Part shown: positions 2,332 to 29,511 of the stretch, piece by piece
Layout of the letters: each line of letters begins with the position of its first letter
Numbering within the stretch: the first letter of the stretch is position 1
Virus record (IMG/VR): IMGVR_UViG_3300042566_000762
Coordinates: 42,462 to 106,461 of that record
Length of the DNA stretch: 64,000 nucleotides
From: a virus
Strand: one strand, 5' to 3'
Program-made: the position numbers and the translations under genes
Notes under the pieces: model-generated
Databases searched by the model: none
Seen by the model: only the letters and a program-made list of their open reading frames with translations
Told to the model about the DNA's origin: nothing

Positions 2332-3525
2332 TTACCACTTTCTACAACTCCAATATCTTGCCTTGTGTCTTGGTCCTGGACTATCACAATTATGTCTTGC
2401 TCTAAAAGATTTTCTCGCTTTGGGATTAGACTTTCTTATTCTCATCGTTTTCTCACCTTTGGATGCTGCGGATGTTCCACCATGTCCAAAGTTTACCTTT
2501 ACTACATTACCAGCTGGGTTCTTTACATATACTTTAAATTTCTTAACATCACCTGCCATTGGTTTACCTAACTTAACTTCTCTACCCTGATATTCTGCTT
2601 CTCTTAAACATTGACATCCTTCATTTAAGTTTTTATCATATGCTCTCATAAATGAAATGAAATCCTCCATATCCTCATCTTCTACATCATATTCTTCAGG
2701 TTCAACTAAACCATAATTTACATCATCGTCACTATTAATATCTTCACTTATAGGAACACAATTTGGAACCATTTTACCATTTTTCATTTTACCACCAACT
2801 TGCTTATAACCGTCCCAACAAGCTTCGTTTACTACACCTTCACCGAACATACCTACAAAATCACCTTGATATTTGTTACCAGGTCTGCCCGACATTGCCG
2901 TTGCGAAATCTTTTCTAACTTTTTCTTTTCCTTTAGCTATAAAGTTAAAAAGGTTTTTAGCATTCAAATTAAAATCATCTATAAATTTTTGTACTATACT
3001 ATCACGTGTGCCCGTCAATTTAGCAATTTCTTTTGCTTCTTTGCCCGCCACTTCACTTATTACATTTTCGCTACAAGTTTTCCAACCACCACCTTTTGAT
3101 TTGTAGTTTTTTGCAGCCCATCCATTTGCATAAGCCGATGGATATACATCAAATTTAGATTTTGCAGCTGCTTTACTTGCAGACCACTTACCTGGGTCAG
3201 TTGGACAATTCTTTTCTAAAAATAAATTTAGTTTTTCTTCTATGTTCATAGTTTCATTTTTTGGTTTAGTAGAAACATATATTGGTGTTTTACCTTGTCC
3301 ACTACTATTTTTACCACCTCTTCCTGCATCATTTTGTGCAGCTCTCTTTCTACGAGTTGCACTTTCTTTTTCTTTTTTACTCATTCCGGCTGCTTTTGCC
3401 GCAGGAACACATTTAGCATATCCTTTCTTTTCTCCCGAAGTTCCACATGGTGGGTGCTTGCCATCGACTTTTTTGCCGATGTTTACCCATTTTTCTTTAA
3501 ACCACTTATTCAAATCTTCGTTCAT
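2332..3525 (-). CDS. Modular basic protein, probable internal head protein/polyprotein
   Basis: 397 aa of short Cys/Trp-containing basic modules (KWFKEKWV..PCG..KCVP; YPSAYANGW; CWDGYKQVG..VPNCVP; KKFKVYV..VNFG..SFRARHNC..ARYWSC) joined by xxE linkers; between terminase and portal. Confidence 0.65.
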   Translation of the reverse strand: MNEDLNKWFKEKWVNIGKKVDGKHPPCGTSGEKKGYAKCVPAAKAAGMSKKEKESATRRKRAAQNDAGRGGKNSSGQGKTPIYVSTKPKNETMNIEEKLNLFLEKNCPTDPGKWSASKAAAKSKFDVYPSAYANGWAAKNYKSKGGGWKTCSENVISEVAGKEAKEIAKLTGTRDSIVQKFIDDFNLNAKNLFNFIAKGKEKVRKDFATAMSGRPGNKYQGDFVGMFGEGVVNEACWDGYKQVGGKMKNGKMVPNCVPISEDINSDDDVNYGLVEPEEYDVEDEDMEDFISFMRAYDKNLNEGCQCLREAEYQGREVKLGKPMAGDVKKFKVYVKNPAGNVVKVNFGHGGTSAASKGEKTMRIRKSNPKARKSFRARHNCDSPGPRHKARYWSCRKW

Positions 3526-6533: not shown

Positions 6534-9500
6534 TTATGCGTAAAAAATACCTAATATCTGATTTAGTGGTGCAAATGTACCAGTTAACTTATATGTTTTA
6601 CCATTATAAAAGAATACTAAACCTTCACTTGCAACTATTTTTTCAATACCACCCAATTGATTTAATCTTTCCAATTCAGTTTTCAATTTTTGTATTTGAG
6701 CTGGATTTCCAGCACTTCTAACTTGGTCTGCTACTGATTTGAATTTTTGTTTCATCGCTCTAATAGCATTTTCAGGGTGAACAGTTAATACACTTCCAAC
6801 AAAATCTAATACATCCGCACCTACACCTAAAAATATTTCTTCAAATGGTCTAATGTTTTCTTTTTGTTGTTTGATTACATTTACTTTATCATTTTCAATT
6901 GCCCACTCTTGCAATTCTTCATTTGAAATTGTGTTTAAACGAAATGTTTTTTCGCCAAACGCCCATCTTCTAATCAACGCTTCTTTAGTAATTTTATCAA
7001 CTTTAGTAGGCGCTTTTGATTCAATCCACCAATCCCACCAACTTTGATGATAATCAGCCACATTGTCCGTATCTTTTAAATGAAATTCCGATTGTAATTT
7101 ATTTAATTTTGATAAATATTTACCTTGTTTAGAACTTAAATTATTATCTTTTGGAATAGAAGTTATGGGAGGGCCTTGAATCGTATATTTTGATTGAACA
7201 TCTGCGTTTACTTGTTTAATCATTCCCGCCAATTTAGATGCCGCTGATTGGTCTGCACCAACTGCTTCACCTTTTTCATTATAACAAGTTGTATTATGAA
7301 ATACTAAAAGTGCTTGGCCATATGGAATAACATTAACCGAATCTGGCCATATTACTTCTAAATTCATAAAGCATTGGCCTTCGTTAAATATTTTCTTTCT
7401 TTGTGCTTCCGATAACCCACTAATTGCTGCTGATAAATCTTTCATTGCAAAGTTGTAAGCATCGGTTAATCCACCTCTACCGGCAAACTTTGATGCAACA
7501 TCTTCGATACCCATTGCGTTTGCACCTGCGTTTGCTAAATTACCTTTATTTCTGGCTGCAATCAATCTACCATTTTTCCAACTAATTGCTAATGCCTGGC
7601 CATCTGTTTTTTCTCTAACAACTCCCAAGTCACCTTCTAATGCAGATTTAATTATATTTTTCAAATCACCAAAAGTCAAATCCATATCATCAAAAGGATG
7701 TGACATGTGTCCGTATGCACCACCCTCCATCAATAATCCCTCTTTAATAAATTCCGTTTCTACATAATCAACATCTGGAAGGTTTTTTATACTATATGTA
7801 ATAGTTCTTTCTTCTGCATCGTCATCACCAAATATTGCATCTGCTTTTGGAAAATCAGTTTGAGTATATCCACCATTTTTATACCAATCTTCACTTTTAT
7901 CGGTATTTAATTTTCTTTTTTTACCTTTTTGAACAAATGAACCATCTGGAACATCTGCGGTATTGGATACCATAACACTACTAACTTCGTTTAAATCGGG
8001 TTCAATATTTAATTCTTTTTCCATTCTGGTAATATCATCATATCCCATATTACGAAGTGCTTTTGCAACTGCCGTTGGGTTGTTATGATTTGGATTACCA
8101 AATAAAAATGCATTAATTCTTTTTCTGAATTTTGCATCTCTGTAAAGTTGAATTATGTTTTTGAAATGAATATCTTTATTACCCATTTCATATATATTTT
8201 GTCCTTTTTGTCCTAAACGAAATGTGGTTGCCTTTTTACCATTTATAGTTGGCATTCCGTGGTCATCTTTACCAATATCTTTAACAACAACTTTTTTGTT
8301 TTTGAATTTACCCATTAAAACCTCATCACCCTTATCAACATCTATATTAATATCTTCATTATAGATTTGTTTATTTATCTTACCATAATTTCTCATTAAA
8401 ATACCGGCTACTGCATGTGCTTGATTTTCAATTGGAGAACCAGTTGCACCATCTTTAACTTCATCTTTTACTAATCCCAATTCATCTTGTTTTCTATGAA
8501 CCATTTCGTGTGCAAGAGTTCTAAGTATGTCTGCAGTTAATCTACCTTCTATTGCAACATATATTTCTTTAGACATTGGATTATACCCACCTAAAGAGGT
8601 TTTTGCTTCTGAATATTCTCTACCACTTAGTAAAGTTATTTTTGGAGTTTCTTTTAACTTTAATTTTTTAGTTGCATATTCTACAAAATGTTGAATTGAA
8701 TTTTGTTTTGTTTCTGAAATATTTTCGTTTAATCCTTTTGTAAGATTTTGTAATTTTGAAATTTCCTTTTGTTTTTTATAAGATTCCAATGTTTTTAATA
8801 ATTGTTGAGGATTTGGTTCAAATGTTTCCATTTTTTTAACAACGTCTGCAACTAATTTTATAAACATATCACCATTTGCTTTTGTTTCATTTACTTCTTC
8901 CGCCAATCCCATTCCTTTAAGTGCCATATGTCCCAATCCAAAAAGGCCTGCACCTACTTGTGCTTCGATGTGGCCCTCACCCGCTGCCAATCCTAATGCT
9001 TCTAATCCACAATGTTTTCCAAAATCAATTGCTGCATGTGCTGCAAATCCTCCCACACTTGATACGGAATGTGATGCACCTTGACTTGCGGCTTGTATTA
9101 CTCCACCAATACCCTTTCCTGCCGCAGCTGCACCGGTTGCTCCTGCGATTGCTGCACCGACAACAACCGATGCTCCTATTACCGCTACATCTTTAAGAGT
9201 TGAAATACATGCTTTTCTTTGTCTTTTTTCCTCATGCTCACTATGTTTATATTGACCATCTTTATCTTTAAACCAACCAAATTTAGGTTTTCCTGTATAC
9301 ATAGTTGATAATGCCAAAGATTTTAAACCTCTACCGGTATTTTTTAATTGATGGTATTTTTCTTTTACAACTTCGTATACTTTTTCAGCTATATTTTTTG
9401 GAAGATTTGAAATAAAATCACCAATTTTTTGAGACCAATTTTTTCTTGTTTCAGAATGTGGGTTGGTTGTTTCATGAACATCATGTTGTTCTTCTTCCGT

Positions 9501-10793
9501 AAAATCTTTAATTATCGCTTCACATTTTACTTTTGCCTCTTTTGCTATTTCAGCAGCTTTTTCTTTAATTTTATCTATACCAGATTTTTCAGCATCAGAT
9601 TTTAATTCTCCACCTCCTAACTTTTGTTCAGGTGGGGGGCCTTGTTCTTGACCTTTTTCACCAGGTGCAGCAGTTGGTTTTTCTTTATCTATTTTTCCCT
9701 GCGGCGTTTGTCCTTTTTTTGTGGGTTGGCCGGGTTCGGATGGTTTCGCCGATTGAGTTGCTGCTTTTCCAGGTTCCGTTTTTTTCTTTGGGTCGTTTGC
9801 AGGTGCATCATCTGGTCCTGCTATTTTTGAAGCTTGAATGTGTGCTGGATGTTCTTTTGGTAATCTTAATGCATCTCTTGCTTTAATTTTCTTTTGTTGG
9901 CCTTTACTATTTGTATAACTAATATCAACATCCAATGCTTTATTTGAAGCTTCACCAAAATATTCTTTAGCAAATTCTTCAAACATTTCATTTGTAATAT
10001 ATCTTTCTATTATTTCTGAAATGGGGTCATATGGTGCTTTATTTCCGTCAAATGCCTTTTTCTCATCTTCGGGATGTTCCGTTTCATGTCTTGTAGGATG
10101 TGGTTCTGGTCTCATTTCCGATGATGGTTTTGTATTATTGGTTTCATCTATTGAACCTGTTGGTGCACCATTGATATATCCTCCCGGTAAATTCAATCCA
10201 ACTCCTATTCCTCCTGGAAATCCTTCGTTCAATTTTGTTGTTATCATTTTAAAAATCTCTTTGTCAAATTTTGGATATGCTTTAAGAAAAAACTTTTTAG
10301 CCTTTTCTTTATCGTTACTTCCCAATCCTCGTCTAACTTCGGTTCCACTTATAGGATTTTCTTCGGCAGGTATTGGATATGTATAACCTATTTCATCGTA
10401 ACCATATCCAGCATTGCCTTTATATGGTTTAAAATATTTTCCCTGTAATCTACTTGCATCTTTATCACCTACTGCTGCAATATATGCAATAGTTTGTCCG
10501 TCATATTTTTTTAATATTTCGGCAGGTCTATATGGATTGTTTACTTTTACAAACTTAGTAGATGGAACACCAAACATCTTAGTTGCAATTTCCTTTTTCT
10601 CATTAAAAGAAAATGGAGATTTATCGGAAGATGTATCATTTGATGTTGCAATATAAACATTTGCAGAACCAAATTCACTTACTAAGTTTTGATATGCCGC
10701 ATAATGTCCTTTATGGAATGGTTGAAAACGACCAGCATATACGACTATTTCACCTTGTATTTTTGGTTTATCTTTTTCTGTCAATAAATTCAT
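6534..10793 (-). CDS. Large multidomain protein: HIGH nucleotidyltransferase (NMNAT-like), Gly/Ala hydrophobic segment, HExxH metallopeptidase-like domain, small beta domain, C-terminal ATP-dependent-ligase-like domain
   Basis: 1419 aa; AGRFQPFHKGH/SPFS/ISGTEVR; TLAHEMVH; REKTDG ... NLEVI ... EGLVF ... YKLTG. Confidence 0.75.
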   Translation of the reverse strand: MNLLTEKDKPKIQGEIVVYAGRFQPFHKGHYAAYQNLVSEFGSANVYIATSNDTSSDKSPFSFNEKKEIATKMFGVPSTKFVKVNNPYRPAEILKKYDGQTIAYIAAVGDKDASRLQGKYFKPYKGNAGYGYDEIGYTYPIPAEENPISGTEVRRGLGSNDKEKAKKFFLKAYPKFDKEIFKMITTKLNEGFPGGIGVGLNLPGGYINGAPTGSIDETNNTKPSSEMRPEPHPTRHETEHPEDEKKAFDGNKAPYDPISEIIERYITNEMFEEFAKEYFGEASNKALDVDISYTNSKGQQKKIKARDALRLPKEHPAHIQASKIAGPDDAPANDPKKKTEPGKAATQSAKPSEPGQPTKKGQTPQGKIDKEKPTAAPGEKGQEQGPPPEQKLGGGELKSDAEKSGIDKIKEKAAEIAKEAKVKCEAIIKDFTEEEQHDVHETTNPHSETRKNWSQKIGDFISNLPKNIAEKVYEVVKEKYHQLKNTGRGLKSLALSTMYTGKPKFGWFKDKDGQYKHSEHEEKRQRKACISTLKDVAVIGASVVVGAAIAGATGAAAAGKGIGGVIQAASQGASHSVSSVGGFAAHAAIDFGKHCGLEALGLAAGEGHIEAQVGAGLFGLGHMALKGMGLAEEVNETKANGDMFIKLVADVVKKMETFEPNPQQLLKTLESYKKQKEISKLQNLTKGLNENISETKQNSIQHFVEYATKKLKLKETPKITLLSGREYSEAKTSLGGYNPMSKEIYVAIEGRLTADILRTLAHEMVHRKQDELGLVKDEVKDGATGSPIENQAHAVAGILMRNYGKINKQIYNEDINIDVDKGDEVLMGKFKNKKVVVKDIGKDDHGMPTINGKKATTFRLGQKGQNIYEMGNKDIHFKNIIQLYRDAKFRKRINAFLFGNPNHNNPTAVAKALRNMGYDDITRMEKELNIEPDLNEVSSVMVSNTADVPDGSFVQKGKKRKLNTDKSEDWYKNGGYTQTDFPKADAIFGDDDAEERTITYSIKNLPDVDYVETEFIKEGLLMEGGAYGHMSHPFDDMDLTFGDLKNIIKSALEGDLGVVREKTDGQALAISWKNGRLIAARNKGNLANAGANAMGIEDVASKFAGRGGLTDAYNFAMKDLSAAISGLSEAQRKKIFNEGQCFMNLEVIWPDSVNVIPYGQALLVFHNTTCYNEKGEAVGADQSAASKLAGMIKQVNADVQSKYTIQGPPITSIPKDNNLSSKQGKYLSKLNKLQSEFHLKDTDNVADYHQSWWDWWIESKAPTKVDKITKEALIRRWAFGEKTFRLNTISNEELQEWAIENDKVNVIKQQKENIRPFEEIFLGVGADVLDFVGSVLTVHPENAIRAMKQKFKSVADQVRSAGNPAQIQKLKTELERLNQLGGIEKIVASEGLVFFYNGKTYKLTGTFAPLNQILGIFYA

Positions 10794-10947: not shown

Positions 10948-11490
10948 TTAATTTTGGTAATACAATTCCGGATATTCTACTAATATATATACACCTTTGT
11001 TTTGTGTTGCATATTTGTAAGATAATTCTATATCGGTTGGTGTTTTTAAATCTAAAAATTCTATATTTTTACAAAGAGATTTAAATTCTTCTAAATAATT
11101 TCCTCTGTGTTGGTGACCAGGGTCTAATGGTTTGTCCGAACCTTTACCCAATCTAATTAGAATGTGTGGACGTTTTCCGGTCATCAATTCGTATTTATCA
11201 ATATGATTTACTAATTGATTGGTTGCTGATATTAAAAAATCCCATCTTGGATAAAATGATATTACTAATTTATTTGTCATTGCCAATCCCAATGTCATAC
11301 CCATTTGAGTTTCTTCCATTACTGGTAATTCAATCATTTTATCTTTTGAAACTTCACCCAATGTTGTACTCATTGGATTTCCTGCATAAAGAATTTGTTG
11401 GCCTATGAATATTGAATTATCCAAATCTGATAATTGATTCATAGCAGATGTCAATGCATCTTTGTATGGTGTATATTTTGGTGTGTTCAT
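10948..11490 (-). CDS. TPP-dependent enzyme, E1-beta/transketolase pyrimidine-binding subunit (short form)
   Basis: IELPVMEETQMGMTLGLA, YPRWDF, NQLVNH, GHQH; likely start MNTPKY at 11490 rather than the track's 11508. Confidence 0.85.
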   Translation of the reverse strand: MNTPKYTPYKDALTSAMNQLSDLDNSIFIGQQILYAGNPMSTTLGEVSKDKMIELPVMEETQMGMTLGLAMTNKLVISFYPRWDFLISATNQLVNHIDKYELMTGKRPHILIRLGKGSDKPLDPGHQHRGNYLEEFKSLCKNIEFLDLKTPTDIELSYKYATQNKGVYILVEYPELYYQN

Positions 11491-11492
11491 AA

Positions 11493-12131
11493 TTAAAAGA
11501 TAACCCACTTTCCACTTCCGTAGTGAGGGTATTTTGATTTATAAGTATAATGTATTACATCCGATGGAAGGTCTCTCTTTTCGTTCCACGTTGCTTCGGT
11601 TGGTGTGTTTGTTGAAATTCCATTATCTTCTACTATAAAATATAAAGGTAAATTAAAGTTTCTTGCATATTTGTGAACTTCATAAAATATACCACTCTCA
11701 AAACTCATATCACCAATAAAACACCAAACCTTATCCTCTCCACCATCTTTTTTTATAGATAGTGCAATTCCTAATGCAATTGATAATGTTGAACCAACAA
11801 TTGCAGATGAATAAAATTTAGCATCTATATCACACATTGTAATAGATTTACCATCTTTGATTAATTCGGTTGCATAATCGGCAGATATTCCTTTTAAAAC
11901 CCAATGATAATGAGAACGCCACGTTGAGAATACCCAATCCGTTTCTTTAACTCTTTTAAATACTTCTATTAATTGTTCTTCGTTTCCGTTTGATAAATGT
12001 ATTGGGCCTCTTATCTTTCCGGCCTCCCATAAATCAACGATGTCCTGCTCAAACTTAATTAATTTCTCAGGTGTCCAACCAATTTCTATTTCATTTCTTA
12101 CGATTGAATATTGTTCTAAATTTTGTATCAT
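11493..12131 (-). CDS. TPP-dependent enzyme, E1-alpha-like subunit
   Basis: IHLSNGNEE, STWRSHYH, AIVG, TPP-binding GDMSFESG...EDN. Confidence 0.88.
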   Translation of the reverse strand: MIQNLEQYSIVRNEIEIGWTPEKLIKFEQDIVDLWEAGKIRGPIHLSNGNEEQLIEVFKRVKETDWVFSTWRSHYHWVLKGISADYATELIKDGKSITMCDIDAKFYSSAIVGSTLSIALGIALSIKKDGGEDKVWCFIGDMSFESGIFYEVHKYARNFNLPLYFIVEDNGISTNTPTEATWNEKRDLPSDVIHYTYKSKYPHYGSGKWVIF

Positions 12132-12165
12132 TATCTATCTCTTTTTTGTAATATTGGATTTGTCT
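12131..12165 (-). pseudogene. 3' remnant of rmlC (TNPILQKRDR*) abutting the E1-alpha start
   Basis: Near-identical to the end of the intact rmlC at 14129-14160 (SPILQKRDR*). Confidence 0.7.
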
Positions 12166-12198
12166 TTGTTTATTTAAACATATTTTTCAATGTTTAAC

Positions 12199-12798
12199 TT
12201 AAAGTATTGTTTTTTCGGTTTTACTAGGATGATATCCTATATTATATTTATTACTTTTATCTAAAATATTTTTAAAATCTTCATCAATATAATTAATATT
12301 TAAATAATCAAATAATTCAGAGAAATTTCCATAAAATAAATCTTCATAATAAAAAGAACGAAATAATGGGTCTTTTAATTCAAATAATACATTTTCCAAA
12401 GATACAAACACATCTTCCTTTTCTTTTATCATTTCTTCGGTTATGCCAGCTAAGTGATATTTTCTTTTGGTTTTATCTAAAAAATTTTTATTATGTTGTG
12501 CAGTAATAGAACTAATGACCTGTTCTCTTTTATTTTTTCTAGATATTAATAACACTTTATCAAAGTCATTTATAATTTTCTCTTTATTAATTTTTAGCAA
12601 GCTAAAATTACTTATATCACTTTTTACTAAAACATTTTCATATTTGATACATTCTTCGTATTTTGTTTTTTTAATTCCAGTTTCTTTGTAATGAGTAAAT
12701 GGTTGATTAAAATATTCATAATTGGAATTTTGTCTTAAAAAATACTCCGATATTGAATTAGTTCCACTACGTGGTATATATAATATTAATATTTTCAT
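12199..12798 (-). CDS. Sulfotransferase-like P-loop protein
   Basis: 5'-PSB-like IPRSGTNS, FNQPF, RKNKREQVISS (3'-PB-like), FYYEDL. Confidence 0.65.
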   Translation of the reverse strand: MKILILYIPRSGTNSISEYFLRQNSNYEYFNQPFTHYKETGIKKTKYEECIKYENVLVKSDISNFSLLKINKEKIINDFDKVLLISRKNKREQVISSITAQHNKNFLDKTKRKYHLAGITEEMIKEKEDVFVSLENVLFELKDPLFRSFYYEDLFYGNFSELFDYLNINYIDEDFKNILDKSNKYNIGYHPSKTEKTIL

Positions 12799-12947
12799 CT
12801 ATCTCTTTTTTGCAATGTTGGTTTATCTGATGGCCGTTCCATTTGATATTCCGGGTCGTTCCATTTAACCACTCCTTGTTCATCTGCATCAACATAACCA
12901 AATTTTTTCGATGGAGTAATTTGAAACTCATCCCATTTATTACTCAT
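12795..12947 (-). pseudogene. Internally deleted second rmlC allele (50-codon ORF)
   Basis: MSNKWDEFQITPSKKFGY|VDADEQGVVKWNDPEYQMERPSDKPTLQKRDR* matches both termini of RmlC 14129-14674 and lacks the cupin core; ATGA overlaps on both sides. Confidence 0.8.
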
Positions 12948-13402
12948 ATTATTGTTGTATTTTTTGATTTAAATAAATCATTATGTAGAAATCCAACTAA
13001 TGTAAATCTTTTACCTACACAATTTTCTACTCTATGTGTTTCTTCTCCTGTAAAATATATCATAGTTCCTATTTTTGGTTTTATAGTTAGTTCATTAAAT
13101 ATCAATTCACCTCCCGTATATTTATCATTTAAAAATATAACAAATGAATATGGGTTGATATGAGAATGTGTTGTTTTAACTTGTTCAATATTTTCATCGG
13201 TGTATTGTATTCTAAATTTCTTAAAATCACATTTTATAAATTCAGGAATAACATTAACAACTTTTTCTAAATGTGGAATTAAATTTAATCCGTGAAAATG
13301 ATAAATATTATCATATACAGAAATAACATTATTGTTATCCCATAAATTAAGTATCGAATTACATTGTACATTTGATATGTAATTATTTACAATCGTAATC
13401 AT
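12944..13402 (-). CDS. 2OG-Fe(II) oxygenase (prolyl-4-hydroxylase-like)
   Basis: SFVIFLNDKYTGGEL, THRV, RFTLVGF; the first metal motif is HSH instead of HxD. Confidence 0.8.
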   Translation of the reverse strand: MITIVNNYISNVQCNSILNLWDNNNVISVYDNIYHFHGLNLIPHLEKVVNVIPEFIKCDFKKFRIQYTDENIEQVKTTHSHINPYSFVIFLNDKYTGGELIFNELTIKPKIGTMIYFTGEETHRVENCVGKRFTLVGFLHNDLFKSKNTTII

Positions 13403-13420
13403 ATAATATTAACTATAATA

Positions 13421-13795
13421 TCATAGTAATTTTTTTTCTCTTGATTTCCAATACATCTTCCCATAACTGTGGCACAATTCATCACCCGCCTTTATGTTTT
13501 TTAATGAGAAAAATTCTATAATGATTGGTTTTTCTATGTTTATTAATCTCCAACGTATATTTGGTGTATCACTATGATTATAAATTGAACCATACCCCAA
13601 TGGTAGTAAGGATTCTGTGTCAGTAAGACTGAAAAGATAATCAATACCTGGATTAAATGGTTGAAGATATGTTTTAAGACTATAACAAGTTTCAACAATA
13701 CTGCCTTCATCAATATCTTGACAAGCAAAAACTCCGAAACCCATTATTTCATCTATGTATTTTACTTCTAATTCGATTTTATTTTTAATAATCAT
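13421..13795 (-). CDS. SET-domain lysine methyltransferase
   Basis: GFGVFACQDI, IYNHSDTPN, IKAGDELCHSYG. Confidence 0.9.
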   Translation of the reverse strand: MIIKNKIELEVKYIDEIMGFGVFACQDIDEGSIVETCYSLKTYLQPFNPGIDYLFSLTDTESLLPLGYGSIYNHSDTPNIRWRLINIEKPIIIEFFSLKNIKAGDELCHSYGKMYWKSREKKLL

Positions 13796-13801
13796 ATGTC
13801 A

Positions 13802-13833
13802 TAAATATACGAAAAAAAGTTCATATTTCCAAA
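13802..13833 (-). promoter_or_regulatory. Bacteroidota sigma70-like promoter
   Basis: TTTGGAAATATGAACTTTTTTTCGTATATTTA upstream of the SET gene. Confidence 0.65.
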
Positions 13834-13837
13834 TTTA

Positions 13838-13948
13838 TTAAAATCACATTTTATAAATTCAGGAATAATATTAACAACTTTTTATAAATGTGGAATTAAA
13901 TTTTGTATTTGATATATAATTGTCTATAACCATAACCATATAATATTA
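13838..13948 (-). pseudogene. Deleted, frameshifted remnant of a 2OG-Fe(II) oxygenase allele
   Basis: 13838-13893 nearly copies 13221-13286; the 5' part MVMVIDNYISN resembles MITIVNNYISN, including the upstream leader. Confidence 0.75.
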
Positions 13949-13952
13949 CATA

Positions 13953-14132
13953 TTATGTTTGATTTGCATAACCCAAAGGGAATCCATTTCTAAATTCTGC
14001 TCCCATTTTTGGAACTATCATTTGATATGCCATTATTAATTCCTGTATACCATTATCCAAATTTACATGTGGTCTCCAACCTATTTCAATATCATTTCTA
14101 ACTATTGAATATTGTTCTAAATTTTTTATCAT
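13953..14132 (-). pseudogene. Chimeric 59-aa ORF: E1-alpha N-terminus fused in frame to epimerase C-terminus
   Basis: MIKNLEQYSIVRNDIEIGW|RPHVNLDNGIQELIMAYQMIVPKMGAEFRNGFPLGYANQT*; 14011-14081 is identical to 15549-15619; the junction lies in shared GGTTGGA. Confidence 0.85.
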
Positions 14133-14674
14133 CTATCTCTTTTTTGTAATATTGGTGAATCCGTTGGCCATTCGATTTGAAATTCAGGGTCATTCCATTT
14201 TACAACACCTTGTGCGTTTTCTTCAACAAAATCACCTTCATAAAATAAATTATAATGAAATACACAATCGGTTAATGCATAGTGTCCATTTGCAAATCCA
14301 GGTGGAACTAATATTTGGTCTCTGGTTTTTTCAGTAAGTAAATATGAATTCCAATCACCATATGTAGGTGATTCTTTTCTAACATCCAATACTACTAAAA
14401 ATATATCACCGACCAAAGCTTGAACCAATTTCCAAGTCTTATTATCCCAATGCAATCCTCTCAATACACCTTTGTATGATTTTGAGAATCTACCATGTAC
14501 TTTCAAATCTCCGTGCATAAAATTATGAACAGGATGTTCTTCCGGATGATATGTTGTCCAAATCTCTCCCCTATATTCTCTATATACCGATGGTGAAAAT
14601 ACTGGTACATCTTTACCAAATGGTTTTAAAAATGATACATCTATATCATTCCATTTTTTATCTTTATAACTCAT
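14129..14674 (-). CDS. rmlC: dTDP-4-dehydrorhamnose 3,5-epimerase family protein
   Basis: SKSYKGVLRGLHW, KLVQ, DVRKESPTYG, VPPGFANGH, WNDP. Confidence 0.88.
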   Translation of the reverse strand: MSYKDKKWNDIDVSFLKPFGKDVPVFSPSVYREYRGEIWTTYHPEEHPVHNFMHGDLKVHGRFSKSYKGVLRGLHWDNKTWKLVQALVGDIFLVVLDVRKESPTYGDWNSYLLTEKTRDQILVPPGFANGHYALTDCVFHYNLFYEGDFVEENAQGVVKWNDPEFQIEWPTDSPILQKRDR

Positions 14675-15489
14675 ATTAATTTATTTTTATGCGTATTAGT
14701 TAAGTATTTTGCTAATTCTTTTGCGTATTCAATATGTCCGAAATATCCAGGATGTAAATCTTCATATCCTGTTAATTCTCCTTTTAATTCATCTGTTATT
14801 GTTAGTTTATTTCTCAAACAATAATTGTAAATATCATCCGATTCCTGTGTGTTTGAAAATTTTATAATATCTTCTTTATCAAATGTAGTTGTTAAATATA
14901 ACCAATTTTTTTGCATTAAAAATATTTTAATATTATTAAATTTACAAAAAGAATATAATCCAGCTAATGCATATTCATCATTTTTTAAATTAGCTTGAAA
15001 ATTAAAATGATTTTCGTGCCAATTTAAAAATATATCTTTATATTCCAAATCTTTTTCTAAAATTTTAGGATTAAAATAATCTCTAGTGGCGCCGGCCATC
15101 TCGTAAATATCACCATCATTTTTTGAATTAACTATATAATATTCGTTGGTTTTATTTAAGAATACATCACATCTACTAGGGTCAGGCTTATCTAATATAA
15201 TAAAAAATTTATTTTTATTTTTCCAATTTTTTTCTATAAAATCATAAGTCATTCTAACTATTCTTTGAACACCTACTCCCGATTTAGCTTCGTTAATACA
15301 TTTCACATTTATTAATTTAGATAATCTATATCCAAAATTAACTTCTTCTCTATTTTTCCAACTTACATTATGTAATTTTTTATATAACCTATGAACACCA
15401 ATACCTCTGATATTCGGTTCTTCTAATCCACCACCTTCACAATGCGAACTTCCGTTAACATAAAAAAATTGATATTTACTAAAATCCAT
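14671..15489 (-). CDS. SGNH/GDSL-like hydrolase or acyltransferase
   Basis: VNGSSH, INEAKSG, DLHPGYFGH; likely start MDFSKY at 15489. Confidence 0.7.
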   Translation of the reverse strand: MDFSKYQFFYVNGSSHCEGGGLEEPNIRGIGVHRLYKKLHNVSWKNREEVNFGYRLSKLINVKCINEAKSGVGVQRIVRMTYDFIEKNWKNKNKFFIILDKPDPSRCDVFLNKTNEYYIVNSKNDGDIYEMAGATRDYFNPKILEKDLEYKDIFLNWHENHFNFQANLKNDEYALAGLYSFCKFNNIKIFLMQKNWLYLTTTFDKEDIIKFSNTQESDDIYNYCLRNKLTITDELKGELTGYEDLHPGYFGHIEYAKELAKYLTNTHKNKLI

Positions 15490-15490
15490 A

Positions 15491-16462
15491 CTATCCCAAA
15501 TTTGCATACCCTAAAGGAAATCCATTTCTAAATTCTGCACTCATTTTGGGAACTATCATTTGATATGCCATTATTAATTCCTGTATACCATTATCCAAAT
15601 TTACATGTGGTCTCCAACCGGTTTCTTCTATTTTTGAATTTGATACAATATAGTTTCGTTTATCAGGGTCTTGATAATAATCATCGTATACTACTGCAAA
15701 ATCTTTTACATATTTTTGTATTTTTTCCAATAATTCTTGTTTATTCAAATTTGCATCACTCAATCCAATATTAAAAACTTCTCCTTTATATCTTTCATAT
15801 CTATCCAACATAAATGCAAATACGGATGCTACATCTCTAATATGAATAAAATTTCTTTTAAATGTTTTTTCAAATACAACAATGTATTTATCGGTAATAG
15901 CTTTATAAACAAAATCATTTACTAATAAATCCGTTCTCATTCTAGTTGAAACTCCAAATACGGTTGCTAATCTAAATACGATTGCATCAGTACAATTTCT
16001 TAAAAAATTTTCAGCTTCACATTTAGTTTGACCATAAACCGATATAGGAGTGAGTGGAGATTCTTCATTACATTCCAATTCACCCGTTCCTAACCCATAT
16101 CCACTATTTGTATTTGGATATAGAATTTTTTTATCTTTTCCGTTTGTAAATTTAACAATATTAACTATTTGTTGAAAGTTAATTTCTTTTGCAAGTTGTG
16201 GGTCTGCGTCGCATGCAGGAAACCCAACAATGGCTGCCAATGGAATTATTACATCTGCTCCATCACAAAGTTTTTCTAATAATGTTTCATTACGGACATC
16301 ACCATAAATAAATTTAAATTTAGAAGTATATGTATATCCCAATAAAGATGTTTGATTAAATAATAATTTATCTAATACCGTTACATTGTGGCCATCTTCC
16401 AATAATCGTTTTGTTATAACCGAACCTAAATATCCTGCACCACCGGTAATGAAAACTTTCAT
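15491..16462 (-). CDS. NAD-dependent nucleotide-sugar epimerase/dehydratase (extended SDR)
   Basis: TGGAGYLG, AAIVG, catalytic YGQTK, RLATVFG. Confidence 0.93.
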   Translation of the reverse strand: MKVFITGGAGYLGSVITKRLLEDGHNVTVLDKLLFNQTSLLGYTYTSKFKFIYGDVRNETLLEKLCDGADVIIPLAAIVGFPACDADPQLAKEINFQQIVNIVKFTNGKDKKILYPNTNSGYGLGTGELECNEESPLTPISVYGQTKCEAENFLRNCTDAIVFRLATVFGVSTRMRTDLLVNDFVYKAITDKYIVVFEKTFKRNFIHIRDVASVFAFMLDRYERYKGEVFNIGLSDANLNKQELLEKIQKYVKDFAVVYDDYYQDPDKRNYIVSNSKIEETGWRPHVNLDNGIQELIMAYQMIVPKMSAEFRNGFPLGYANLG

Positions 16463-17241
16463 AACTTATTTTTAATATAAATATAAAATTCTTTTGAAAA
16501 ATTGTCATGCCATAATTCTCCTGGGTGGTGATTATCTCTAGCTTTTAAATCATTTTTATAACAATTTATTGGGTCAAAAAATGTATCATAATTTATAGTA
16601 GAATTTAATTCCGATTTCAATTCTTTAAAAACATCGTAATAATATCCAGCTATTGTATGAAATATTTTTATATTGTATAATTTTGCAATTACTTCTACGA
16701 ATTTGTAAGCTTCCCAAAATGTCATTAAATCCTGATAATCATTTCTTAATTGAACAAACATCAAATCTTCATCTTCGTTTTTCCAAACTAAATCCATATC
16801 ATTGGCCATTCTAAATCCACCTATTTTTTTAAAAGAACCATTTTCTTTAATATAATCTCTCCTACTAAAACCAGGCCACATTATCAAAACCATATCCGGT
16901 ATAAATTCGGATGAAATTATTTTATATAATGTTTTCGCTATAAATGAAGTCGATGCACCATACATTCCATAATTAAAAACTTTACCAAATTGTTCACCAA
17001 TAAGATTTGGCCATATTTTTTCATTTTTAACACCAATACCCATAGTCCAAGAACAACCCAATGTTAATATGTTATAATCGGATTTATCTTTTAATGGGTT
17101 AGAACGATACCCATGTTCATTCATTTTATACCAAATTGTATTATCATCATTTGTATCACTTGCTAATGTTGGTAATATTTTATTTTTATATTGTTCAAAT
17201 ACAAAGACATCATCGGATAATATTTTTTCAAAATCTTTCAT
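16459..17241 (-). CDS. SGNH-like hydrolase or acyltransferase
   Basis: NEHGYRS, LGCSWTMG, NYGMYGAS, NHHPG. Confidence 0.75.
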   Translation of the reverse strand: MKDFEKILSDDVFVFEQYKNKILPTLASDTNDDNTIWYKMNEHGYRSNPLKDKSDYNILTLGCSWTMGIGVKNEKIWPNLIGEQFGKVFNYGMYGASTSFIAKTLYKIISSEFIPDMVLIMWPGFSRRDYIKENGSFKKIGGFRMANDMDLVWKNEDEDLMFVQLRNDYQDLMTFWEAYKFVEVIAKLYNIKIFHTIAGYYYDVFKELKSELNSTINYDTFFDPINCYKNDLKARDNHHPGELWHDNFSKEFYIYIKNKL

Positions 17242-18683
17242 TAAATAATTAAGTTATTTTGAATAGAATACAATTCGTTTATAAAATCTGCACCATATAA
17301 TTTTGTGTTATTATATTCTAAAAATAATTTTTGATTATGTAGTAATATATCTTCCATTTTCCAATACCATTCATGCAATTCTTCATTTGACATTGAACAC
17401 AATCTTTTAATTTCATTGTGTATAGCTATCATTCTATCTGCTGTCGACTCAATTGTATCATATGTCTCATCTATGAATCCGTCAAATGTTTTAAATCCTA
17501 AGTCTCTTAACAATTGTAAACCCCCTGCAAATGTTACAAATATAAATGGTTGAAAATTAACAATAGGTTTAAATATTTTTTCAGTAAGAGATTTATGTTC
17601 ACCATCTACCAATGTTTCAAATAATATTTCAAAATAAGAATCCAAATGTGGTTTAAAATCAACATCAGTCCATGCATTTATTTCTCCGTAAGTATTTCCT
17701 GTTTCACTTTGTAAATTATGTGGAAACATCGTATATGCTGATTTAATTTTGTCTGCATCTATATCATGTAATTTATACTCAGATATTAAATGCCTTAAAC
17801 TGGGTTCATTTAATCCGTTTGTTGATAAAAATGACCAATCTCCATATTGTAATAAATCATCATTTATCATTCTATACATAACTGCCAACCTATGTAATCT
17901 GGCATTTCGCATTTTCATTAAGTATTTGTTTGGTCTTATTGTATTTTTACTGTTATTAAAATCATCTATATTCATTGATAATTTTAAATTATTTTTTATG
18001 CCATCGGAATAAAACCAAGAACCATGGTCTAAACAAAATGGTAAATTTCTAACTTCGTATTTTCTATCTTGTGGTTTAAACCAATTTTCATACAATTGTC
18101 TGGCATTAAAACTATTGACAACAACAAATATTGATGTTGATGGTAATCCACTATTTTTTAAACATTCGGTTAATCCGTTATGCATGTTTAAATCTAAAAA
18201 AGGTTCCATTGTATAATCTATGTAAATAATTCCTTTTCTTTTTTTTACTTTTTCCAAAACTTCTCTTGAAATAAATTTCCAAAAATACGAACCATTTAAT
18301 TTGTCAGCTATACCATTTTGAACGCCTGTGAATTGTGTAAATATTGGATTTGGTCTAATTGGATATATAAATTTTTTATTTGTATTTCTTTCAAATAAAA
18401 CCGAAGATTCTTTATAATCTAAATGTTCTCTATAAACATTGGCTTGGAAAAAATATCCATGTGCTGTATTGGGATTATGACCCATTGAATCTTCAAACAT
18501 ATCTTTCATAAAAATTTGATTACCTCTATCGGTTGTAGATGCTTCAAATATTGTAGAATGCAATGTTCTATTTGTGTGGACAGACGATATATAATTTATG
18601 ATACCCAGTTGGGTATCTAATGCATTTGGTAATATAAAAGTAGGAAATATGTAATCAAATACAAATGTTAATTGTTTTTTCAT
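17241..18683 (-). CDS. Putative glycosyltransferase (GT10-like C-terminal motif)
   Basis: FETL...LTEKIFKPI...QPFI...LRDLGFKTF..FIDETYD resembles the fucosyltransferase TEK motif region. Confidence 0.55.
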   Translation of the reverse strand: MKKQLTFVFDYIFPTFILPNALDTQLGIINYISSVHTNRTLHSTIFEASTTDRGNQIFMKDMFEDSMGHNPNTAHGYFFQANVYREHLDYKESSVLFERNTNKKFIYPIRPNPIFTQFTGVQNGIADKLNGSYFWKFISREVLEKVKKRKGIIYIDYTMEPFLDLNMHNGLTECLKNSGLPSTSIFVVVNSFNARQLYENWFKPQDRKYEVRNLPFCLDHGSWFYSDGIKNNLKLSMNIDDFNNSKNTIRPNKYLMKMRNARLHRLAVMYRMINDDLLQYGDWSFLSTNGLNEPSLRHLISEYKLHDIDADKIKSAYTMFPHNLQSETGNTYGEINAWTDVDFKPHLDSYFEILFETLVDGEHKSLTEKIFKPIVNFQPFIFVTFAGGLQLLRDLGFKTFDGFIDETYDTIESTADRMIAIHNEIKRLCSMSNEELHEWYWKMEDILLHNQKLFLEYNNTKLYGADFINELYSIQNNLII

Positions 18684-18685
18684 AA

Positions 18686-19474
18686 TTAATAAAATAATTT
18701 AGGGCCTAACCAAAAGGCTTTATTAAATGGTTCTAAAATGATTTTAGAGTAAATTTCATGTTGTAATTTAGTTGATTTATTATTAACGGCTTTTAGTGAT
18801 AACTCATATCTTAGTTTAGATTCTAATGTATCGTATTCAGGAAAAGTTTCCTTTAAATATTGGTAATGCATCGTTTGAGTTGGGTGTGTATCATAGTCAT
18901 TTTGGTCATCATATTTTACATATTCTAACTGATTTGGGTAGTTTTTACGTCTCCAATCATCCATAGATTCTTTCACATCTAACATATCATAAATTGAATC
19001 AAAATAATATTGTATTAATTTATTATCTTTATATTCATTTGATAATGAATTATTATTCATAGATGTCAAAAATGTGTGTTTAATATTTTTTAGTGTTAAT
19101 ATTTCTTTAATAGTTTTAATTGCAATAAATGATTGATAAACTGACCATTCACTTGACCACATATTTTCTAAAAACTCATTTGATATGTCAGGATTGAAAT
19201 AAATATTTCCACCATGCACCCAGTTATTTTTATTTCTAAAAGAAAGCCTATCCATATTAGTAAACATAACAATTACATAATCCGTTTGATTTAAATTTAA
19301 ATTATTATTGACTTCTATAAATCTGTTCATTATAAAAGTATTGGATGCACCACCTTGTCCAAAATTCATATATTCTTCAAAATTTGCACCCATATAATCG
19401 GCCCATGTTGCAGTAAAATATCCAGTATAACTGCAACCAAATGTTATTAGTCTTTTATTATTAAATGTAGTCAT
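18686..19474 (-). CDS. SGNH-like hydrolase or acyltransferase
   Basis: TFGCSYT, NFGQGGASN, DTHPT. Confidence 0.75.
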   Translation of the reverse strand: MTTFNNKRLITFGCSYTGYFTATWADYMGANFEEYMNFGQGGASNTFIMNRFIEVNNNLNLNQTDYVIVMFTNMDRLSFRNKNNWVHGGNIYFNPDISNEFLENMWSSEWSVYQSFIAIKTIKEILTLKNIKHTFLTSMNNNSLSNEYKDNKLIQYYFDSIYDMLDVKESMDDWRRKNYPNQLEYVKYDDQNDYDTHPTQTMHYQYLKETFPEYDTLESKLRYELSLKAVNNKSTKLQHEIYSKIILEPFNKAFWLGPKLFY

Positions 19475-20252
19475 TATTTTTCAATTTATCTAATATTATT
19501 TTGTATACTATTTCATGTCCTATATTTGATGTGTGCATTGTATTCATATCATCAGGATATTGATGGGAAAGTTTCATAAAATCTACATTGGCCAAATTTT
19601 TCATAGGAATATATTTATTAAATTCAACCAAATCATATGTTAAAAATATATGCTTAATACCTTTATTTTTTAATAATGAATGTGCTAAATTCATCATACC
19701 AATATCATATTGTCTTTGAATATTATCATCAAATATTTCTAAATAATATTCTTTTAATAATTTCATTCTAGTTTTACTTTCAGTATCAAATCTACTATAA
19801 TAATTGGATTTCCAATTTGGATTGTCCATACAATTATCCACATAATCAATTATACTATTAAAATTTTCAGTTAATAATTTACCATTATAATCACCATCTA
19901 ATTGCATTGGATTTGGTATATTATATTTGTAACTATCTTTACCAAATGGTGGATATTGGTGATAATTCACATTGGTATTCTTAATATCTCCATTAAATTC
20001 ATAATTTTCAGGAAACCATTCCGTTCGATTATATGTTGTAACACCGATGCACATTAAATCAATATTTTTATAATTTTCAATTGCATATTTTACTTGTAAA
20101 AATATAGAAAAATTAGAACTAGACCCTTTAGCTAAATTTATTAAATTTAAATTTAATTTATCAGATAATAGTGAACCATATGGTTCTTTTTCTAAATTAT
20201 GACAACCAATTCCTATATTAAAAGAATCTCCACAAATAACTAAATTATTCAT
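19461..20252 (-). CDS. SGNH-like hydrolase or acyltransferase
   Basis: ICGDSF, NLAKGSSSN, MHTSNIGH. Confidence 0.75.
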   Translation of the reverse strand: MNNLVICGDSFNIGIGCHNLEKEPYGSLLSDKLNLNLINLAKGSSSNFSIFLQVKYAIENYKNIDLMCIGVTTYNRTEWFPENYEFNGDIKNTNVNYHQYPPFGKDSYKYNIPNPMQLDGDYNGKLLTENFNSIIDYVDNCMDNPNWKSNYYSRFDTESKTRMKLLKEYYLEIFDDNIQRQYDIGMMNLAHSLLKNKGIKHIFLTYDLVEFNKYIPMKNLANVDFMKLSHQYPDDMNTMHTSNIGHEIVYKIILDKLKNNDYI

Positions 20253-21126
20253 ATATAAGTTTATTTTGTTTTATATAATCATATAATTCATTTGCCCATA
20301 TCAAATGCGATTCTTCTGATGGATGCCAACCTGAATATGGGTTATTTATTGCATTTTGTTCCATAAAAGATTTAAATGTATTATTTTTTTTATTCTTTTT
20401 ATAAAATCTAATAGAATCAATACTTTCCCACAATGATACATATTCTTGTTTATAGTATTCTCTTTCAAAATTTTTGTTAGTATGATATGGATGATTTTGT
20501 AAATGTAATTTTTGCAATTCCAATTTTATATCAATGTCTTTCCAAACTTCAATAGATGTTCCAACATTTTGATAAAAGGAATTAAATGATAACCATTTTA
20601 TATTATTTGCTTTACAAAAATTTTCAAATTGTAAAATATTCATAATATGTCTTGGTAAATATTCTTCTTTATTCCAAAGATATTCAACATAATAATTCCA
20701 AAATTCTTTTTGATTTTCTTTTTGTAGATTTTGAATGGATGGCCAGATTCTCATATTGTAATTCAAATCTTCATCTTTATACCAAAAAGAATTTCGTTCA
20801 GGAGATGACCAACCAACTAATAAAAATAAATTATCAGTTGGGATATTTTTTACAATATAATTTGAGGTAACATATGTTATTATTCTGTTTAATATGGTAT
20901 TATTATCATCTGCAGACCAACTTAAATTTATTACATCTGCGTCTAATAATTTACCTAAATGAGTTGAAAATATTTTAGATAATCTATATTCGTTATTTTC
21001 ATTAATCCAATCATATTCTCCGGCATGAGTATTTGTTGGTTTATTTTTAAGTATATTTGGGTCTAATATTTCTGAACCAAATACCCAGCTATCCCCATCA
21101 CAAATAATTTTTAATTTCTTTTCCAT
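20245..21126 (-). CDS. SGNH-like hydrolase or acyltransferase
   Basis: DGDSWVFG, NLSWSADDN, GWHPSEESH. Confidence 0.75.
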   Translation of the reverse strand: MEKKLKIICDGDSWVFGSEILDPNILKNKPTNTHAGEYDWINENNEYRLSKIFSTHLGKLLDADVINLSWSADDNNTILNRIITYVTSNYIVKNIPTDNLFLLVGWSSPERNSFWYKDEDLNYNMRIWPSIQNLQKENQKEFWNYYVEYLWNKEEYLPRHIMNILQFENFCKANNIKWLSFNSFYQNVGTSIEVWKDIDIKLELQKLHLQNHPYHTNKNFEREYYKQEYVSLWESIDSIRFYKKNKKNNTFKSFMEQNAINNPYSGWHPSEESHLIWANELYDYIKQNKLIYE

Positions 21127-21785
21127 TATATTAATTTTGCTTTAAACGCCGTTTCAGTATCGTGATATATTTTATTAAGTATTATTTTAGAAAAATCTCT
21201 ATGTCCCTTATATGACCAATGTAAATCTTCTATTTCACCATTGGTACAAGTTTTTATATTTTCATAAACTGTCCATAATTGTTCTACTTCCCAAAAAACC
21301 AATTTATCTATTTTTTTATTTTTTAAATATTTTTTAATAAAATCAAATCTTAAATTTTGTCTTTTTTTAGTATTTTCATCGCAAAGTAAAGATAAAAAAT
21401 ATTCTATATGTTCTATTTCATTTTTATTAAAATTCAATTGTTTTAATAATGCCGATGAATTTAAACTAATTGTATTAAATTTATAAATTATATCATTTTT
21501 AATATTAAATTCATTATTTGGAATATCAAATCTACTATAAAAAGTTTTGCCTATTATTACAATATCATCTTTAGAAATCAAATCTATTTTTTCAATTATA
21601 TTATCAAGTATTCTATCATTTGAAAGGCCGCCATAACCAAAATTAACTAATTTCAAATTTAATTCATTGGCAACGATATCTGGCCAATGCATGTCACCAT
21701 CTATTCTATATTTTTGAGAATATTCACATTCTTCATGTGTTTTATTAAATGTGAACGAATCACCAAAAGTAAATAATTTTTTCAT
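21126..21785 (-). CDS. SGNH-like hydrolase or acyltransferase
   Basis: TFGDSFT, NFGYGGLSN, DLHWSYKGH; likely start MKKLF at 21785. Confidence 0.75.
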   Translation of the reverse strand: MKKLFTFGDSFTFNKTHEECEYSQKYRIDGDMHWPDIVANELNLKLVNFGYGGLSNDRILDNIIEKIDLISKDDIVIIGKTFYSRFDIPNNEFNIKNDIIYKFNTISLNSSALLKQLNFNKNEIEHIEYFLSLLCDENTKKRQNLRFDFIKKYLKNKKIDKLVFWEVEQLWTVYENIKTCTNGEIEDLHWSYKGHRDFSKIILNKIYHDTETAFKAKLI

Positions 21786-21786
21786 A

Positions 21787-22653
21787 TTAAGGTTGGCCAA
21801 AGTTATCACCATACCAATCTACGGAAATTTGATGTATTTCTTTCCAATTTTTGACACCATCTAATTGTTTATCCTCAGCTTCTTTTCTGACAATATAGTA
21901 TGGTGTAGTAACTTCTCCTGTCGGATATATTTGCCAATTTATTAAATGTCTATATAATGTAGTACCGGGTCCTAAATTGAATATTGTTTCATCCATAATT
22001 TCGTTTGAATTTAATTTCAACTTATCTGCAGTTACAACTTTGTGTTGCCATCTAAATGCATTTCCAATAATGTCCATTGTGGGTGAATCTGAATAAAAAA
22101 ATACATCGTCAAATGAAATTGTATTAAATTCTTTTGGGAATCTTGCTAAAAATTCGGCCGATGAATAAGCTGAAAATGGTTGGGTTGGATGAACATAAAA
22201 TTTATTAGTCATAAAACCAAATCGTGGAAATGGGTCTAATGAAAAGTTTAAATCAAATCTACTTTTTATTACTAAATCATATACAAAATCATTTTCAATT
22301 TCATATTTTCTTTTTAATTGAACAACTTTCATCAAACTATAAAAAAGTGGAGACCATACATTATTAAAATCTGCTGCGTTGTATTTTTCATATTCCATTA
22401 AAACCGGGTTGAATGCGTTTTGTATTTCGGTTTCGGTTATCGGGTCTAATAAATAATCATCACCTTCCCATCTTTGTTTTGTTTTATCTCTATAACTATT
22501 TGTATCCCAAGTATGAACAAAATAATCAACTTCTACTTTTTGTTTTGTAAAATCATTTACCTTTATATTGAAATAATTTAATATATTTTGTATACCTACT
22601 TTGAAAGTTCTGGATTGGCCGGTCAGTAAAATTGCAACTTTAAATGGTTTCAT
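21787..22653 (-). CDS. Putative GT-A-like glycosyltransferase
   Basis: VAILLTGQSR, DYFVHTW, YDLVIKSRFD, DDVFFYS; paralog of 22656 and 40208. Confidence 0.6.
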   Translation of the reverse strand: MKPFKVAILLTGQSRTFKVGIQNILNYFNIKVNDFTKQKVEVDYFVHTWDTNSYRDKTKQRWEGDDYLLDPITETEIQNAFNPVLMEYEKYNAADFNNVWSPLFYSLMKVVQLKRKYEIENDFVYDLVIKSRFDLNFSLDPFPRFGFMTNKFYVHPTQPFSAYSSAEFLARFPKEFNTISFDDVFFYSDSPTMDIIGNAFRWQHKVVTADKLKLNSNEIMDETIFNLGPGTTLYRHLINWQIYPTGEVTTPYYIVRKEAEDKQLDGVKNWKEIHQISVDWYGDNFGQP

Positions 22654-22655
22654 AT

Positions 22656-23411: not shown

Positions 23412-23414
23412 ATT

Positions 23415-24170: not shown

Positions 24171-24172
24171 AT

Positions 24173-25585: not shown

Positions 25586-25587
25586 AA

Positions 25588-28593: not shown

Positions 28594-28609
28594 AATTTAT
28601 TTATTTTTA

Positions 28610-28641
28610 TAAATGTAGTATTTTTATTTGATATTACCAAA
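28610..28641 (-). promoter_or_regulatory. Bacteroidota sigma70-like promoter
   Basis: TTTGGTAATATCAAATAAAAATACTACATTTA; the first 17 nt are identical to the primase promoter. Confidence 0.6.
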
Positions 28642-29490: not shown

Positions 29491-29511
29491 TTAATTTTTT
29501 ATTAATCTTTT

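Follow-up and report, generated by a model that had tools for sequence, protein, structure and literature searches.

A protein of 1419 amino acids (aa), encoded on the minus strand of a 64,000-nucleotide stretch of virus DNA (hereafter the window; positions 42,462 to 106,461 of IMG/VR virus record IMGVR_UViG_3300042566_000762), ends in a domain that very probably possesses the fold and the active site of the ligase superfamily. The source record spans 106 kb, with a G+C content of about 30% and an estimated completeness of 56%. An earlier note on the window had described this domain, residues 1024-1419, as an unrecognised RNA-ligase-like enzyme, a description which the present analysis upholds: the ligase nucleotidyltransferase fold is predicted, the top ten matches among solved structures are RNA ligases, the motifs are invariant, and no curated family covers the domain.

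The ligase-like domain: motifs, predicted fold and distribution

Translation of the minus-strand open reading frame (ORF) shows the five motifs which the earlier note had listed (REKTDG, FMNLEVI, LLVFH, SEGLVF and YKLTG) in the order it had claimed. The other two features it had pointed out are likewise present: a long helical insert, amounting to about 180 helical residues, precedes motif IV, and no OB domain follows, the sequence stopping 17 residues after motif V. Motif VI is absent along with the OB domain, and no OB barrel is seen in the structural model described below. The parts of the ORF that bear on the ligase-like domain are as follows.

6534..10793, minus strand: whole ORF, 1419 aa, comprising an HxGH nucleotidyltransferase, a variable linker with a Gly/Ala-rich hydrophobic stretch, an HEMVH domain and the ligase-like domain
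6537..7724, minus strand: ligase-like nucleotidyltransferase domain, residues 1024-1419 (396 codons), predicted from the AlphaFold2 model, fold matches to RNA ligases and homologues
7686..7715, minus strand: YGHMSHPFDD, family-specific N-terminal His motif (H1029, H1032); in alignment numbering H22 is invariant and H19 at least 90% conserved
7599..7613, minus strand: motif I, EKTDG, with K1062 the predicted nucleotidylated lysine; K, D and G 100% conserved
7545..7556, minus strand: ARNK (R1081-N1082), at the motif Ia position; R 100% and N 98.5% conserved
7350..7370, minus strand: motif III, FMNLEVI (E1146); E 99.7% conserved; model strand 131-138
7296..7310, minus strand: motif IIIa, LLVFH (H1166); H 99.7% conserved; model strand 152-161
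6633..7166, minus strand: all-helical insert of about 180 aa (1210-1387) between motifs IIIa and IV
6612..6626, minus strand: motif IV, EGLVF (E1390, G1391); E 99.7% and G 100% conserved; model strand 381-386
6579..6593, minus strand: motif V, YKLTG (K1402); K 99.7% conserved; model strand 389-393

Conservation was read from an alignment of 28 sequences, to the profile of which 342 distinct sequences (38-100% identical) were then aligned. The motif I residues K1062, D1064 and G1065 are found in 100% of these 342 homologues, and N1154 and Y1158 (in NVIPYG), as well as H1032 of the N-terminal His motif, are near-invariant. At the level of sequence, this conservation exceeds chance motif spotting by far. 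Motif V, with its single lysine as against the K-x-K of most ligases, counts against the assignment. With respect to the limits of the domain, position 7724 marks the first codon after a conserved LLME tetrapeptide and matches the domain boundary in the homologues; alignments to these start at residues 60-70 of the 468-aa C-terminal query.

An AlphaFold2 model of the domain, built with the homologue alignment as input, reached a mean predicted local distance difference test score (pLDDT) of 90.5 and a predicted template modelling score (pTM) of 0.86, with disorder limited to the first 16 residues, which include the LLME-GG segment. In this model the motifs map to a single sheet core, four of them (III, IIIa, IV and V) on strands and motif I in the stretch between two strands, and domain residues 200-377 form a block of helices. 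The Foldseek comparison with Rnl1 and Rnl2 that the earlier note had called for places both among the leading matches to the PDB, all of them with E values short of significance: none reaches E <= 1e-3, and the best stands at 5e-3, with probabilities of 0.9-0.96. The top of that list consists entirely of RNA ligases (Rnl3, T4 Rnl1, Trl1 and T4 Rnl2), followed by DNA ligases and capping enzymes. Further, in a search with VIA-align, which is independent of Foldseek, ligases fill the first ten places among 48,161 chains. Alignment by hhalign of the family profile with the single T4 Rnl2 and Rnl1 sequences is not significant; its register, suggestive only, sets K1062 on K35 of Rnl2 and on K99 of Rnl1, and E1146 on E159 of Rnl1; K35, K99 and E159 are essential residues of the T4 enzymes. 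For T4 Rnl1 (RnlA) the P value is 0.047, with an alignment only around motifs I-III.

Searches of Pfam, PHROGs and NCBIfam returned zero family matches to the domain, and single-sequence and profile searches of PDB sequences returned nothing usable; matches to eS6 and RNase III look like chance hits of a Lys/Glu-rich stretch. The window protein has no match at the gathering score of PF09414 (RNA_ligase), weak matches to which are seen in 3 of the 28 aligned relatives (best E 0.037), as are weak matches to PF01653 in two of them; across 201 genomes of one phylum, PF09414 itself was found at five loci. The domain family is nonetheless very large and is abundant in aquatic T4-like phages: representatives of clusters at 50% identity include 1863 that are related at E <= 1e-3, that is, more than 1800 such clusters and thousands of metagenomic proteins, in which the domain occurs either C-terminally in proteins of 800-1900 aa or as stand-alone proteins of about 410 aa. 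Among 185,579 species genomes scanned, its only occurrences were on 12 contigs, all from metagenome-assembled genomes of mixed taxa. These are read as binned phage contigs, and the family looks to be confined to phages.

The HxGH partner and the cyanophage DUF6267 family

The remainder of the polyprotein contains a second recognisable enzyme at its N-terminus and two motifs of interest further along.

10224..10793, minus strand: N-terminal HxGH nucleotidyltransferase, residues 1-190 (PF01467, E 1.8e-6; phrog_395)
10704-10715, minus strand: FHKGH of the HxGH domain
8496..8510, minus strand: HEMVH (762-766) in the middle region, a possible zincin motif, read in the sequence only
7725..7736, minus strand: LLME (1020-1023), putative gp21-type cleavage site before the ligase-like domain; conserved, unstructured in the model

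The nearest solved sequences to the HxGH domain are nicotinamide mononucleotide (NMN) adenylyltransferases (NMNATs), at E 4.6e-5 and over the first 70 residues only. Its linkage to the ligase-like domain was read in the fetched loci, including the neighbourhoods of stand-alone forms. In these loci the strict HxGH motif, wherever it occurs in the domain-bearing ORFs, is fused to the ligase-like domain. Of the four long ORFs with intact starts that lack the strict motif, three (L007, L008 and L013) carry the HxGH domain internally according to a profile search, and one (L011) is devoid of it by both strict motif and profile. The domain is likewise internal rather than N-terminal in L004, and at two loci with stand-alone ligase-like genes (L005 and L053) an HxGH gene lies immediately upstream. 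The order found in cyanophages is seen in a 986-aa ORF, a 39%-identical protein from the family of the window domain itself, on contig SHWS01000037.1 (L006), with the ligase-like domain at 348-756 and the HxGH domain at 788-972. The constancy of this pairing, in both orders, points to coupled nucleotide-transfer chemistry.

Further, in Microcystis phage Mel-JY01 the two domains are directly joined in a protein of 639 aa with nothing between them. Hence, the region between them in the window protein, Gly/Ala-rich hydrophobic stretch and HEMVH domain included, is variable cargo, and the two nucleotidyltransferases are the constant pair. The HEMVH domain has no Pfam match and no sequence match in the PDB. 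One cyanophage genome has a gene for a "WLM protease domain" protein (T4-GC70) directly before T4-GC71 (Sullivan et al. 2010, PMC3037559), the cyanophage counterpart considered below, and a zincin beside the ligase-like gene may thus recur. Additionally, profile positions of about 180-320 in the ligase-like family, corresponding to the helical insert, give extra partial matches in the variable middles of many polyproteins (L015, L016, L025, L028, L035 and others), which may reflect repeated helical modules or an effect of Lys/Glu-rich composition.

Among predicted viral structures, Foldseek recovered, besides close relatives of the family, a "cytidyltransferase-like" protein of 591 aa from Synechococcus phage S-PM2 at E 6e-6 and a template modelling (TM) score of 0.39, ranking ahead of annotated viral RNA ligases, which begin at about E 6e-4. 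In the S-PM2 record (NC_006820; L104 2508-4305) a frameshift divides the corresponding DUF6267 plus HxGH ORF into p141 and p142, whereas the viral structure library contains the two halves as one protein of 591 aa. This protein reads HLEHLED, KWDG, VFH, a helical stretch, EGFV and KAVKIVDR, and then passes into an HxGH domain. Its ligase-like part corresponds to DUF6267 (PF19782; E 1e-124 for the S-CAM3 protein), a family present in 468-471 phage records, nearly all from T4-like cyanophages, and listed as a hypothetical protein, T4-GC71, in all 16 cyanophage genomes compared by Sullivan et al. (2010, PMC3037559). Within the literature library that was searched, no paper mentions DUF6267. The DUF6267 gene overlaps the next gene, for a cytidyltransferase, in S-CAM3, S-SZBM1, S-PRM1, S-H9-2, S-MbCM6 and Syn2, and is fused to it in S-PM2.

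An alignment of DUF6267 from eight phages shares with the window family an N-terminal H-x-x-H-x-x-D, the K-x-D-G of motif I, a basic motif Ia, an acidic motif III, N-x-I-x-Y, the IIIa histidine, the helical insert, E-G-x-V and the motif V lysine; H-L-E-H-L-E-D of DUF6267 stands at the site of YGHMSHPFDD in the window protein. Both families look to be confined to phages, and both have an HxGH enzyme as a fused or neighbouring partner, in either order. In the ESM Atlas, the nearest viral cluster to the window domain has 24% PF19782 members (score 0.97). The two differ in that the motif III acid is Asp in DUF6267 and Glu in the window family, in that the usual order is ligase-like then HxGH in cyanophages and the reverse in the window family, and in that the window pair is embedded in a polyprotein of 900-1900 aa. 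Direct profile comparisons count against the kinship: the PF19782 model matches neither the window protein at E <= 1 nor any of the 28 relatives at E <= 10, and hhalign against the eight-phage DUF6267 profile reaches only P 0.018. Alignment of the family profile with the single S-PM2 and S-CAM3 proteins brings the right motifs together and is not significant. The window family and DUF6267, the nearest family to it, are probably branches of one superfamily, and the window protein is not assigned to DUF6267 as a member. Neither this kinship nor the near-obligate link to the HxGH enzyme had figured in the earlier note.

Putative protease sites, head genes and possible packaging

Downstream of the 1419-aa ORF on the minus strand lie, in order, two small ORFs, the gene for the large terminase, an ORF of 397 aa and the portal gene. 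Just beyond the window are the genes for a T4 gp21-type prohead protease (Peptidase_S77, PF03420, E 1.4e-30) and a gp23-type major capsid protein (PF07068, E 2.2e-77), on account of which the source phage has a T4-like mode of head assembly. The terminases of Flavobacterium phage immuto and Mel-JY01 share 51-53% identity with its own. No obvious T4-type late promoter was found upstream of the 1419-aa ORF.

Against this background, the residues directly preceding the ligase-like domain are strongly constrained: of 256 distinct homologues, 98% have L or I three residues before it (position -3) and 89% have E immediately before it (position -1), and a second I/L-x-E often lies five residues upstream of this site. 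The stand-alone forms have leaders of 10-30 residues which end in the same motif, for example MIRLTHILNEVLLNE followed by GGAYGH. Conserved (L/I)-x-E sites are also seen in 46 full-length relatives, although these are close to one another and the motif is frequent by chance: LTE6 is N-terminal, LNE190 closes the HxGH domain, LNE690 and LKE715 precede the HEMVH domain, and LME1023 precedes the ligase-like domain. This pattern fits the specificity of T4 gp21, and the targeting and trimming of the internal proteins of T4 and of Alt. Hence, given the conserved sites and the gp21-type protease encoded nearby, an enzyme delivered with the capsid and released by the protease is plausible.

Virion analyses of cultured relatives bear on the two enzymes differently. 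T4-GC190, the "cytitidyltransferase", belongs to the core genes, and its product was determined by experiment to be a virion protein in S-SM1 (PMC3037559), and liquid chromatography-mass spectrometry of S-SZBM1 virions found the cytidylyltransferase (gene 140) along with the product of gene 139 (PMC9146016). Thus, cultured relatives carry the HxGH partner enzyme in their virions. Several considerations pull the other way for the ligase-like enzyme itself: T4-GC71 bears no structural flag in the former study (PMC3037559), the product of gene 141 (DUF6267) was not found in the S-SZBM1 virion (PMC9146016), and the L-x-E residues could belong to the structure of the domain instead of marking a cleavage site. 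On balance, packaging of the ligase-like enzyme in the capsid is an evenly poised proposition.

Other parts of the window show features of separate interest. The 397-aa ORF between terminase and portal (2332-3525, minus strand) has short, separate matches to 12 PHROGs of unknown function, as if assembled from small shared modules. Two adjacent ORFs of 186 and 212 aa (10948-12131, minus strand) match the C- and N-terminal halves, respectively, of phrog_34187 (unknown function, 405 positions), which might reflect either a gene split in two or a protein of two subunits. A 1047-aa ORF (35319-38462, minus strand) matches an SbcC-like nuclease subunit, with its N-terminus matching a phosphoesterase PHROG, and may be an SbcD-SbcC fusion. 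Finally, positions 12000-31000 hold about 17 tightly packed ORFs on the same strand with a G+C content of 24-28%, markedly below the rest of the window.

Proposed mechanism, alternatives and comparison with known systems

The foregoing can be combined into a model in which residues 1024-1419 would be an active RNA-ligase-type enzyme that transfers nucleotides by way of a covalent intermediate. K1062, the lysine of EKTDG, would attack adenosine triphosphate (ATP) at its alpha-phosphate, or possibly another nucleoside triphosphate or nicotinamide adenine dinucleotide (NAD+), to form a lysine-nucleoside monophosphate (Lys-NMP) adduct in a pocket predicted to be lined by E1146 (III), F1165 and H1166 (IIIa), E1390-G1391 (IV) and K1402 (V). 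The NMP might then be transferred to a 5'-phosphate polynucleotide end, which would either be joined to a 3'-OH or be left capped, with the helical module of 180 aa between motifs IIIa and IV binding the substrate, a task which in known ligases falls to an appended OB or C-terminal domain. The domain may act jointly with the HxGH, NMN-adenylyltransferase-like enzyme. In the source phage both enzymes would probably be built into the prohead as one polyprotein, from which the gp21-type protease might free them at LNE190 and LME1023, and they would then enter the cell with the DNA. A ligase-type mechanism proceeding through K1062-NMP on a polynucleotide 5' end, probably soon after the DNA has entered the cell, is somewhat favoured, and a polynucleotide end is, to a similar degree, the preferred candidate for the substrate. 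Extending the proposal to aquatic T4-like phages at large, from the uncultured freshwater and marine group to the cyanomyophages (T4-GC71 and T4-GC190), as a capsid-delivered nucleotide-transfer pair that acts jointly on nucleic-acid ends at DNA entry, is considerably more tentative and, taken as a whole, doubtful. If true, the joint reaction could be, for instance, capping, sealing or an NAD-linked modification, with the incoming genome or host RNA as its target. The ligase-type reading, with its paired virion-borne NMNAT-like enzyme, turns two core genes of ocean phages hitherto labelled "hypothetical" and "cytidyltransferase" into a concrete hypothesis.

The structural matches would also suit a cytoplasmic, unpackaged RNA-repair ligase that reseals transfer RNA (tRNA), or other RNA, after cleavage by the anticodon nucleases of the host: the best of them are RNA ligases, among which are T4 Rnl1, an enzyme of tRNA repair, and the tRNA ligase Trl1, and the OB domain is absent, as it is in RNA ligases. 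However, the complete relatives G206 (245 kb), G207 (195 kb) and Mel-JY01 already encode a canonical PF09414 RNA-ligase ORF of about 380 aa. An AAA_33 kinase ORF adjoins it in G206 and G207 and lies about 2.4 kb away in Mel-JY01 (G206:C1:1692-3473; G207:C1:185266-186657; PP395634.1, 67682-70896), and this ligase and kinase are possibly a classical RNA-repair pair. Because such relatives carry both a canonical RNA ligase and a kinase, and no kinase or phosphatase end-healing domain is recognised in the polyprotein, the plain tRNA-repair role which the earlier note had entertained is weakened. Together with the location of the ligase-like gene in the head-gene block and the conserved protease-type site before the domain, this renders cytoplasmic RNA repair unlikely. 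The processing of genome ends or repair of DNA breaks, also raised in that note, is possible, although none of the roles suggested there draws support from the present results. The failure to find PF01068 and PF01653 DNA ligases in G206, G207 and Mel-JY01 leaves room for the sealing of DNA, and the enzyme could in that case be a phage DNA ligase which replaces the missing T4 gp30 and seals nicks in replication, recombination or packaged DNA. Such a role sits poorly with the lack of an OB domain and motif VI, with the precedence of RNA ligases over DNA ligases in both fold searches and with a gene placed among head genes and not replication genes; moreover, such phages may simply use the host ligase. 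It is thus judged distinctly unlikely.

The near-obligate association with an NMNAT-like HxGH enzyme, whichever of the two domains comes first, the helical insert unlike any of the known nucleic-acid-binding modules and the single motif V lysine would all be accommodated by a nucleotidyltransferase with a non-polynucleotide acceptor, such as a protein or small molecule, engaged in NAD-linked chemistry with its partner. To our knowledge, the NMP acceptors of the characterised enzymes with this fold are nucleic-acid ends bearing a 5'-phosphate or diphosphate, which speaks against such an acceptor, and none can be named; this proposal is regarded as quite improbable. There is, finally, the precedent of T4 Rnl1 as a tail-fibre attachment factor, and the middling structural scores and sub-threshold links to ligases at the sequence level might be taken to indicate a resemblance of fold only, or a non-catalytic structural or assembly protein. 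The near-invariance of the exact catalytic residues down to 38% identity is hard to explain without catalysis, making this the least credible of the alternatives and very improbable.

In terms of packaging, the T4 capsid-internal proteins (IPI-III and Alt), which gp21 cleaves and which are delivered along with the DNA, provide the closest parallel, being alike in the (L/I)-x-E site before the domain, the short leaders and the presence of a gp21-type protease gene; they have no sequence relation to the window protein, the cleavage and packaging of which are predictions. In terms of catalysis, the ATP-dependent RNA ligases compared, namely Rnl5 (Naegleria NgrRnl, 5cot), REL1 (1xdn), T4 Rnl2 (1s68, 2hvq), T4 Rnl1 (9do4), the Trl1 ligase domain (9r3w, 6n0t) and Rnl3 (2vug, 5d1o), are only 9-16% identical to the window domain, which lies outside their Pfam families, has one motif V lysine and bears an N-terminal His motif of its own. 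Unlike the ATP-dependent DNA ligases and capping enzymes, the window protein lacks a C-terminal OB domain with motif VI, and unlike the Rnl1 type it lacks an appended C-terminal helical tRNA-binding domain, its helical module being internal. Indeed, whereas the extra modules of the RNA ligases are appended at an end, that of the window domain falls inside the core, between motifs IIIa and IV, and would represent a new architecture of the ligase fold with an accessory module inserted within the catalytic core.

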